Source: Escherichia coli (GTDB lineage: Bacteria > Pseudomonadota > Gammaproteobacteria > Enterobacterales > Enterobacteriaceae). From it: a stretch of 64,000 nucleotides of DNA. Made by a program: the position numbers and the translations under genes. Each line of letters opens with the position of its first letter. The stretch's first letter is position 1. Below, piece by piece: positions 41,756 to 42,095 of the stretch. Location of the stretch: assembly GCF_002854065.1 (NCBI RefSeq), contig NZ_CP024147.1. One strand, 5' to 3'. The notes beneath the pieces were generated by a model. It had not been told where the DNA came from, searched no databases, and worked only from the letters and a program-made list of their open reading frames with translations.

Positions 41756-42095
41756 AGTACTGCTGAAGAAATTATTGCCAACGCAATTATTGAATGATCC
41801 AGAATAAGCTAAGGTTGATTTCACAATTAGAAAGACCTGCATGATGAGCGAGAGAAGAGGCTAGTGACGCAAGGCGTCGTGCACGACGCGGATCACCGAG
41901 ATGGGCATTGCCAACCAGACTGCTAATTAGCCCATGAATAACAATCAGAAAGGACCATAACAGACCCGATAAAATGAAATAGTAGAGACGATCAACGGGT
42001 GAAGAAAAAGTTCAAAAATTCGCTGTGGAGCAGGAAGGGAATTACCAAATGGAAAGCGTAGCCACACGCAACAACTGAAAGCAGTTTGGCAGAAA

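Follow-up and report, generated by a model that had tools for sequence, protein, structure and literature searches.

The ORF-free spacer between espY1 and rluA in the 64-kb stretch of Escherichia coli DNA analysed here (the window) is very probably decayed DNA of two origins, the 3′ end of espY1 and the 5′ end of an insertion sequence (IS), lying inside a horizontally acquired segment of low GC content. Homology to espY1 or to the IS leaves only 52 bp of the gap unexplained (41798-41815 and 42137-42170). The initial annotation had offered a choice between a decayed gene remnant and a non-coding RNA; the first option stands, with two remnants in place of one, and the second has no support. What remains is a fossil representative of a known IS family, next to a known and often damaged effector gene, that is, ordinary genomic debris; the transposase pseudogene is already part of the RefSeq annotation, and no new kind of system is involved. 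The result accounts for an empty place on the gene map at a locus of E. coli that is very well studied, which in itself matters little. It also provides a worked example of the decay of a horizontally acquired segment, with an effector damaged lineage by lineage and an unstable palindrome lost, and a plausible instance in which a defunct mobile element lends its terminator to a host gene. That rluA probably relies on the IS end for termination is the one mildly new point.

The gap and the segment that carries it

The window region around the gap corresponds to the lptD-djlA-espY1-rluA-rapA region of E. coli, with espY1 (41075-41755) on the plus strand and rluA (42171-42830) on the minus strand. 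Here the interval between djlA and rluA is filled by a variable 1.39-kb segment (40781-42170) consisting of espY1 and the IS remnant, the GC content of which is 0.38-0.44, compared with 0.52-0.57 in the flanks. Among 5426 complete E. coli genomes, about 2082 (~38%) carry the segment, and it is absent from 3180, which have REP/BIME elements of 116-149 bp there instead. When two REP-type loci (L007 and L008) were compared with the window, divergence ran exactly from the djlA stop to the rluA stop; the 34 bp between the outer end of the IS and the rluA stop codon (42137-42170) are accordingly part of the variable segment, with no homology to REP-type genomes. Both forms of the interval were seen in closely related backgrounds, the flanks of strain PS10-3 being 99.8% identical to those of the window. 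The segment is a horizontally acquired effector gene with a mobile-element stump alongside.

The ORF listing for both strands bore out the earlier statement that the spacer holds no ORF of 60 aa or more: apart from the espY1 end, none overlaps 41756-42095. The true ORF-free gap extends further, for 415 bp (41756-42170), between the convergent espY1 and rluA genes, and its longest short ORFs, all on the minus strand, encode 53 aa (41681-41842), 45 aa (41992-42129) and 40 aa (41945-42067). The spacer had also been described as long for so compact a region. This holds in so far as the gap is the longest internal stretch without an ORF of at least 60 aa in an ORF scan of the 64-kb window, but the margin over the next-longest stretches is small (415 versus 410 and 392 bp), and such ORFs were also absent from 52% of 2000 shuffles of the 415 bp, so that their absence is what any non-coding DNA shows and carries no signal. 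The gap is not a statistical anomaly. The two stretches of similar size, each of roughly 400 bp, lie at 23951-24360 (410 bp) and 9698-10089 (392 bp).

The severed 3′ end of espY1

At the left edge of the gap, espY1 is present as a truncated allele of 226 codons, which is annotated as 'T3SS effector EspY1' in a 99.9% identical RefSeq locus (L001) and as yabP/yabQ in K-12 (L002). EspY1 is ECs0061 of O157:H7 Sakai (PMC4269881), and the K-12 and Sakai annotations refer to the same locus and the same gene. The literature found under yabP, yabQ and EspY1 mostly concerned same-named Bacillus sporulation genes, and beyond the identity of EspY1 with ECs0061 it held nothing on this intergenic region.

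Alignments revealed that the window allele ends at a premature TAA (41753-41755, plus strand; Q227* in window numbering), at a codon that reads CAA in O157-like genomes (L003) and in strain A16 (L011), and AAA in K-12. In K-12 and O157-like genomes the frame past this codon extends for 13 further codons to a TGA equivalent to 41795-41797, and in strain A16, which has the same local haplotype without the nonsense change, the espY1 frame runs to the same TGA. In protein alignments, the window frame reads K*STAEEIIANAIIE*, in the same frame as A16 EspY1. The 13 codons beyond the stop (STAEEIIANAIIE), which together with the ancestral TGA at 41795-41797 occupy 41756-41797 on the plus strand, are found unchanged at the C-terminus of A16 EspY1, an intact protein of 245 aa that ends KQSTAEEIIANAIIE / QSTAEEIIANAIIE; they are also homologous to the O157-like tail QSTAEQITDNAIIE, and hence to the last codons of the ECs0061-type gene. 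Since A16 reads through with the same tail and the K-12 and O157-like frames continue, 41756-41797 can be recognised as freshly orphaned coding sequence, and a recent CAA>TAA nonsense mutation has severed these last 13 codons from espY1. As to whether the spacer is coding in other E. coli genomes, this part of it is, as the end of espY1 in strain A16 and in O157-like genomes. The window haplotype with the nonsense change was matched at 100% in only 4 of the 5426 genomes, about 2082 of which bear the segment.

Alleles of the gene also differ in a 15-bp tandem repeat (TGCTACCCTGGACGG, 41641-41678) that lies inside espY1 and encodes DGATL/V: there are two DGAT units in the window, three in strain A16 and five in O157-like genomes. 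K-12 has the longest array, with a frameshift within it that splits the gene into yabP and yabQ. Relative to the O157-like allele, the window has three fewer repeat copies and a nonsense codon 14 codons before the end, whereas the damage in K-12 is the frameshift in the repeat; the O157-like and A16 genes are intact. These comparisons indicate that the same gene has been damaged in three independent ways across lineages, and that the 52-aa YabQ of K-12 is the out-of-frame C-terminal part of espY1, a product of the frameshift in the 15-bp repeat. For annotators this is a caution, in that K-12 'yabQ' and the short ORFs of the gap appear to be by-products of decay rather than genes. A second 15-bp repeat (AAATTGCTACTGAAG, 3.3 copies, 41724-41773) spans the premature stop.

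A truncated ISEc13-family element and its junction palindrome

Alignment to intact copies identified 41816-42136 (321 bp, minus strand) as the remnant of an ISEc13-family IS (IS4 family, IS50/Tn5-like), covering the element from nucleotide 1 at 42136 down to about nucleotide 310 at 41816. Over 321 bp the remnant shares 90.5% identity with the left end of a 1564-bp copy that is intact (L010:2322-3885), and its identity to ISEc13 of E. coli strain A25 (L013) is 86.1%. At this position RefSeq has a minus-strand pseudogene, frameshifted and incomplete, named 'transposase DNA-binding-containing protein / IS4/Tn5 family'; K-12 and the O157-like genome carry this annotation as well as the near-identical genome. 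The outer end is a 19-bp left terminal inverted repeat of the outside-end type (CTGCCTCTTGTACATAAAT, 42118-42136, minus strand), which matches the left inverted repeat of the 1564-bp copy (CTGTCTCTTATACACAAGT) at 15 of 19 bases, so that a repeat of the CTGTCTCTTATACACA type stands at the element end; it is the only match to CTGYCTCTTRTACAYAAR in the 64-kb window, where none is expected by chance. Inward of the repeat lie a 5′ leader of about 160 bp and, from an ATG at 41958, a transposase N-terminal pseudogene stub of about 47 codons (41816-41958, minus strand). In intact IS copies the homologue of this stretch starts the transposase gene, and so a second part of the spacer is coding elsewhere.

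Frame translations, compared with intact copies, revealed a TAG at codon 12 of the stub, insertions of 4 bp and 1 bp, and a break after about codon 47. Once its frame was repaired, the stub matched the Tn5-type N-terminal DNA-binding domain (Pfam Tnp_DNA_bind, PF14706) with 27.9 bits against a cut-off of 24 (E 2e-6), and it scored 23 bits with NCBIfam IS4_FS_Nterm, under the cut-off of 27 for that model. In a tblastn comparison with a manually entered Tn5 query, the stub sequence LGDPRRARRLASLASSLAHHAGLS aligned to residues 15-45 of Tn5 transposase with 15 of 31 identities (48%), and the LGDPRR DNA-binding motif of IS50/Tn5 is kept in the stub. With ISEc13 as found in A25 (IS4 family, IS50 group) the remnant shares the type of inverted repeat, a 5′ leader with an end-proximal hairpin and the transposase N-terminus (MVLSDCYSWAN...LGDPRR...), but it ends after ~310 of the ~1550-1564 bp, its stub is interrupted by a stop and two frameshifts, and a DDE domain, a second end and a visible target duplication are all missing. 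A DDE catalytic domain with an intact frame is absent, the remnant stopping after about codon 47 in a frame with the TAG and two frameshifts, and a search of the whole 64-kb window found no inside-end-like sequence with up to three mismatches, and with it neither a second inverted repeat nor a target-site duplication. Because of this break, the TAG and the two frameshifts, we class it as a remnant rather than a functional member of the IS50 group: it is the fossil of a member, unable to transpose and predicted to encode nothing. The inverted repeat, the leader and the 47-codon stub are what persisted when everything downstream was lost, the catalytic domain and the second end among it.

Intact copies encoding a 457-aa transposase were recovered at two loci by searching in protein mode. 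The first is the 1564-bp element (L010, 2322-3885) on the Salmonella Kentucky IncX1 plasmid CP082718.1, which has the ends CTGTCTCTTATACACAAGT and CTGTCTCTTGATCAGATCT and is flanked by the 8-bp direct repeat CCTTATAG; its transposase aligned with Tn5 transposase structures (1MUH, 1MUS and 4DM0) over residues 6-453 (E 5e-83). The second is the eight-place element of E. coli A25 (L013), the PGAP name of which is 'IS4-like element ISEc13 family transposase' (WP_201479114.1). Compared with what we take to be the IS50 ends, the Salmonella element agrees at 18 of 19 bases in the outside end and at all 19 in the inside end. Its transposase is distantly related to that of Tn5 despite these near-identical ends. 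The family is nonetheless distinct from IS50/Tn5: decayed copies are 36-53% identical to Tn5 transposase over the aligned stretches (again with the manually entered Tn5 query), and the ISEc13-like 5′ leader is longer (about 180 bp) and contains a hairpin extending into the inner edge of the inverted repeat.

Elsewhere in E. coli, BLAST located copies of 83-87% identity next to tRNA-Leu, next to ytfB and, on an F-type plasmid, next to parB; all of them are decayed and end at ...AAATCCCC(N)GGGGATTTGTGTATAAGAGACAG, the same inverted repeat as that of the window remnant. Some match to the element is present in 4166 of the 5426 genomes, and a copy covering at least 80% of it in 870. A DNA-level search of plasmids, in which the longest of the decayed copies (L006) served as query, yielded nothing beyond that decayed copy on the F plasmid. 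Decayed copies occur at L004, L005, L006 and L009, and one plasmid copy sits between EspT and NleG effector genes.

At its inner end the remnant borders on the 18-bp spacer that follows the orphaned espY1 tail (41798-41815), and alignment revealed that K-12 and O157-like genomes carry 44 bp between 41815 and 41816 that are missing from the window. The junction (41815/41816) has a TGA microhomology, which leaves up to 3 bp of ambiguity in its placement. With the 44 bp in place, the sequence of K-12 and O157-like genomes forms a perfect palindrome whose arms are 17 bp long, GCTAAGGTTGAAGGGGC-TGGAAC-GCCCCTTCAACCTTAGC, with a fold of -29.8 kcal/mol (z -6.2), whereas the window retains only a stub of the left arm (GCTAAGGT, 41808-41815) at the end of the spacer. 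The palindrome lies exactly at the inner break of the IS remnant (L002:2383-2422 in K-12, and the same place in L003). Its right arm and loop run collinearly with the interior of every other copy of the IS, and its left arm is an inverted copy of the right; the palindrome therefore marks the point of IS breakage, and it has the look of a scar left by fold-back or template switching when the IS was truncated. Because the missing DNA is collinear with the IS in other copies, the 44-bp deletion is the derived state, and the shorter form in the window arose by a later deletion flanked by the TGA microhomology.

Of the 30 top matches among the 2082 genomes, 7 lack the 44 bp and the other 23 keep them. 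This distribution, set beside the occurrence of the nonsense haplotype in only four genomes, indicates the order of events in the window lineage, in which IS truncation was followed by the 44-bp deletion and then by the nonsense mutation in espY1. In K-12 and O157 the palindrome stands 10 nt past the espY1 stop codon, where it could stabilise or end the espY1 transcript; it has been lost in the window lineage.

The hairpin downstream of rluA and alternative readings of the gap

On the rluA strand, 50 nt past the rluA stop, a terminator scan and folding identified a hairpin (minus strand; stem 42113-42121/42100-42108, loop 42109-42112) with a 9-bp stem that includes five G-C pairs, a 4-nt loop and the tail UUUGUUUCUG; its U-rich tail lies at 42090-42099 on the minus strand, TTTGTTTCTG as read by the scan. 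The features of an intrinsic terminator are thus all present (a G+C-rich stem, a short loop, an adjacent U-rich tail and a same-strand gene upstream), and the rluA terminator that the initial annotation placed at the right edge of the spacer is real as a motif (minus strand, 42121>42100). As this was the only terminator-like motif that the scan found downstream of rluA, rapA-rluA transcription most likely ends there, and we infer from the motif that the IS end probably supplies the rluA terminator.

The hairpin (42100-42121) is located inside the IS end, where it overlaps the inner edge of the inverted repeat and faces inward, and it is followed by UUUUUUGUUUCU in the window copy. It was found in intact and decayed IS copies alike. 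Its tail is U-rich in the closest intact IS (GGGGAUUUGUUAUUUC) and most U-rich in the window (GGGGAUUUUUUGUUUC), but that of ISEc13 proper is not U-rich (GUGAUGUCUG, GGGGAUUUGUGAUGUC), so a terminator-like end is not universal among members of the IS family. An origin of the U-tract wholly after insertion, considered in view of three decayed copies without it, was dropped because the tail of the closest intact copy is already largely U-rich.

In an active element, such a hairpin would keep external read-through out of the transposase gene. Comparable shielding of the transposase gene from outside transcription is established for IS10 and IS50, and it is a general phenomenon that the ends of mobile elements supply promoters or terminators to neighbouring genes. 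In the present case the IS-end structure sits where the host gene rluA needs a terminator, a role that is here read from the motif. We propose, tentatively, that the IS hairpin has been retained and its U-tract sharpened, and that in the roughly 2082 genomes without REP elements it may serve both as the rapA-rluA terminator and as an insulator against convergent espY1 transcription.

The pattern of conservation is suggestive of such a function. Across the window, K-12 and O157-like loci, the rluA-proximal 111 bp have no differences, while the inner 244 bp of the remnant have 10 variable sites (P ~0.02). Furthermore, 1948 of the 2082 genomes match the window at 99% identity or more over the proximal 111 bp, compared with 12 and 33 genomes for two inner 111-bp segments, a contrast exaggerated by linkage to rluA and by substitutions private to the rare lineage of the window. 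The proximal conservation could thus reflect linkage to a conserved gene, or those private substitutions, rather than selection. In K-12 coordinates the U-tract corresponds to about 59,606-59,615 (minus strand, derived from rluA at 59687). The searchable text of the supplementary tables of an E. coli 3′-end mapping study contains no rluA 3′ end, only an antisense start (PMC7815308).

In another reading, the whole gap is inert, the hairpin included, and rluA transcripts end elsewhere, for example by Rho-dependent termination or through convergent espY1 transcription. In keeping with this, the searched supplementary text gave no 3′ end for rluA, the hairpin region taken by itself is only modestly more stable than its shuffles (z -1.8), and REP-type strains, which have entirely different DNA downstream of rluA, manage without the hairpin. 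We nevertheless consider an inert hairpin the less likely reading, given that the motif is canonical, with 10 U in 12 nt starting at the last three stem bases, that it stands 50 nt after the rluA stop as the sole motif of its kind downstream of the gene, and that it is unchanged among the window, K-12 and O157-like loci.

An independent gene for a small regulatory RNA in the gap, equipped with a promoter and a terminator of its own, is highly improbable. The stretch is long relative to the window, parts of it are well conserved among segment-bearing genomes, and extra terminator-like hairpins were flagged on the minus strand at 42069-42056 and 41967-41952, besides the one at 42121-42100, but the total of four terminators is within the shuffle expectation (2.3 ± 1.4). 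An Rfam scan of 40700-42900 at permissive E-values gave a best E of 1.1, all four matches being far under their gathering scores, and a sigma-70-like promoter scan found no site in the gap, in agreement with the earlier remark that it has no strong promoter. Folding of the whole gap did not differ from that of shuffles on either strand (z -0.7 on the plus and -1.1 on the minus strand), and the interior gathers substitutions and indels like neutral DNA. Neither a known RNA family nor the combination of promoter, terminator and conserved structure was therefore found, and this, together with the homology of all but 52 bp of the 415 bp to espY1 or the IS, is why the non-coding RNA option was set aside. 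It is scarcely credible that one of the three minus-strand ORFs of the gap is a real small-protein gene. ORFs of 40-53 aa do exist there, and the K-12 annotation has the 52-aa 'YabQ' nearby, but YabQ is itself merely an out-of-frame part of espY1, and each of the short ORFs looks like an accidental product of rearrangements. Those of 40 and 45 aa lie inside the IS 5′ leader and begin with GTG/TTG; that of 53 aa is antisense to the espY1 tail and spans the deletion junction, so that it could not exist in that form in K-12 or O157.

When species-representative genomes were scanned with a 23-mer from the hairpin, the only match was in a 'Collinsella sp.' MAG contig (L014, JAIJJM010000692.1, 1646 bp); as the representative of E. 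coli is evidently REP-type or differs in the 23-mer, the scan does not date the insertion. The MAG serves as a species representative in GTDB; on its contig lie the 3′ end of E. coli rluA, the IS remnant and the K-12-type palindrome, and this contig is almost certainly mis-binned E. coli DNA.
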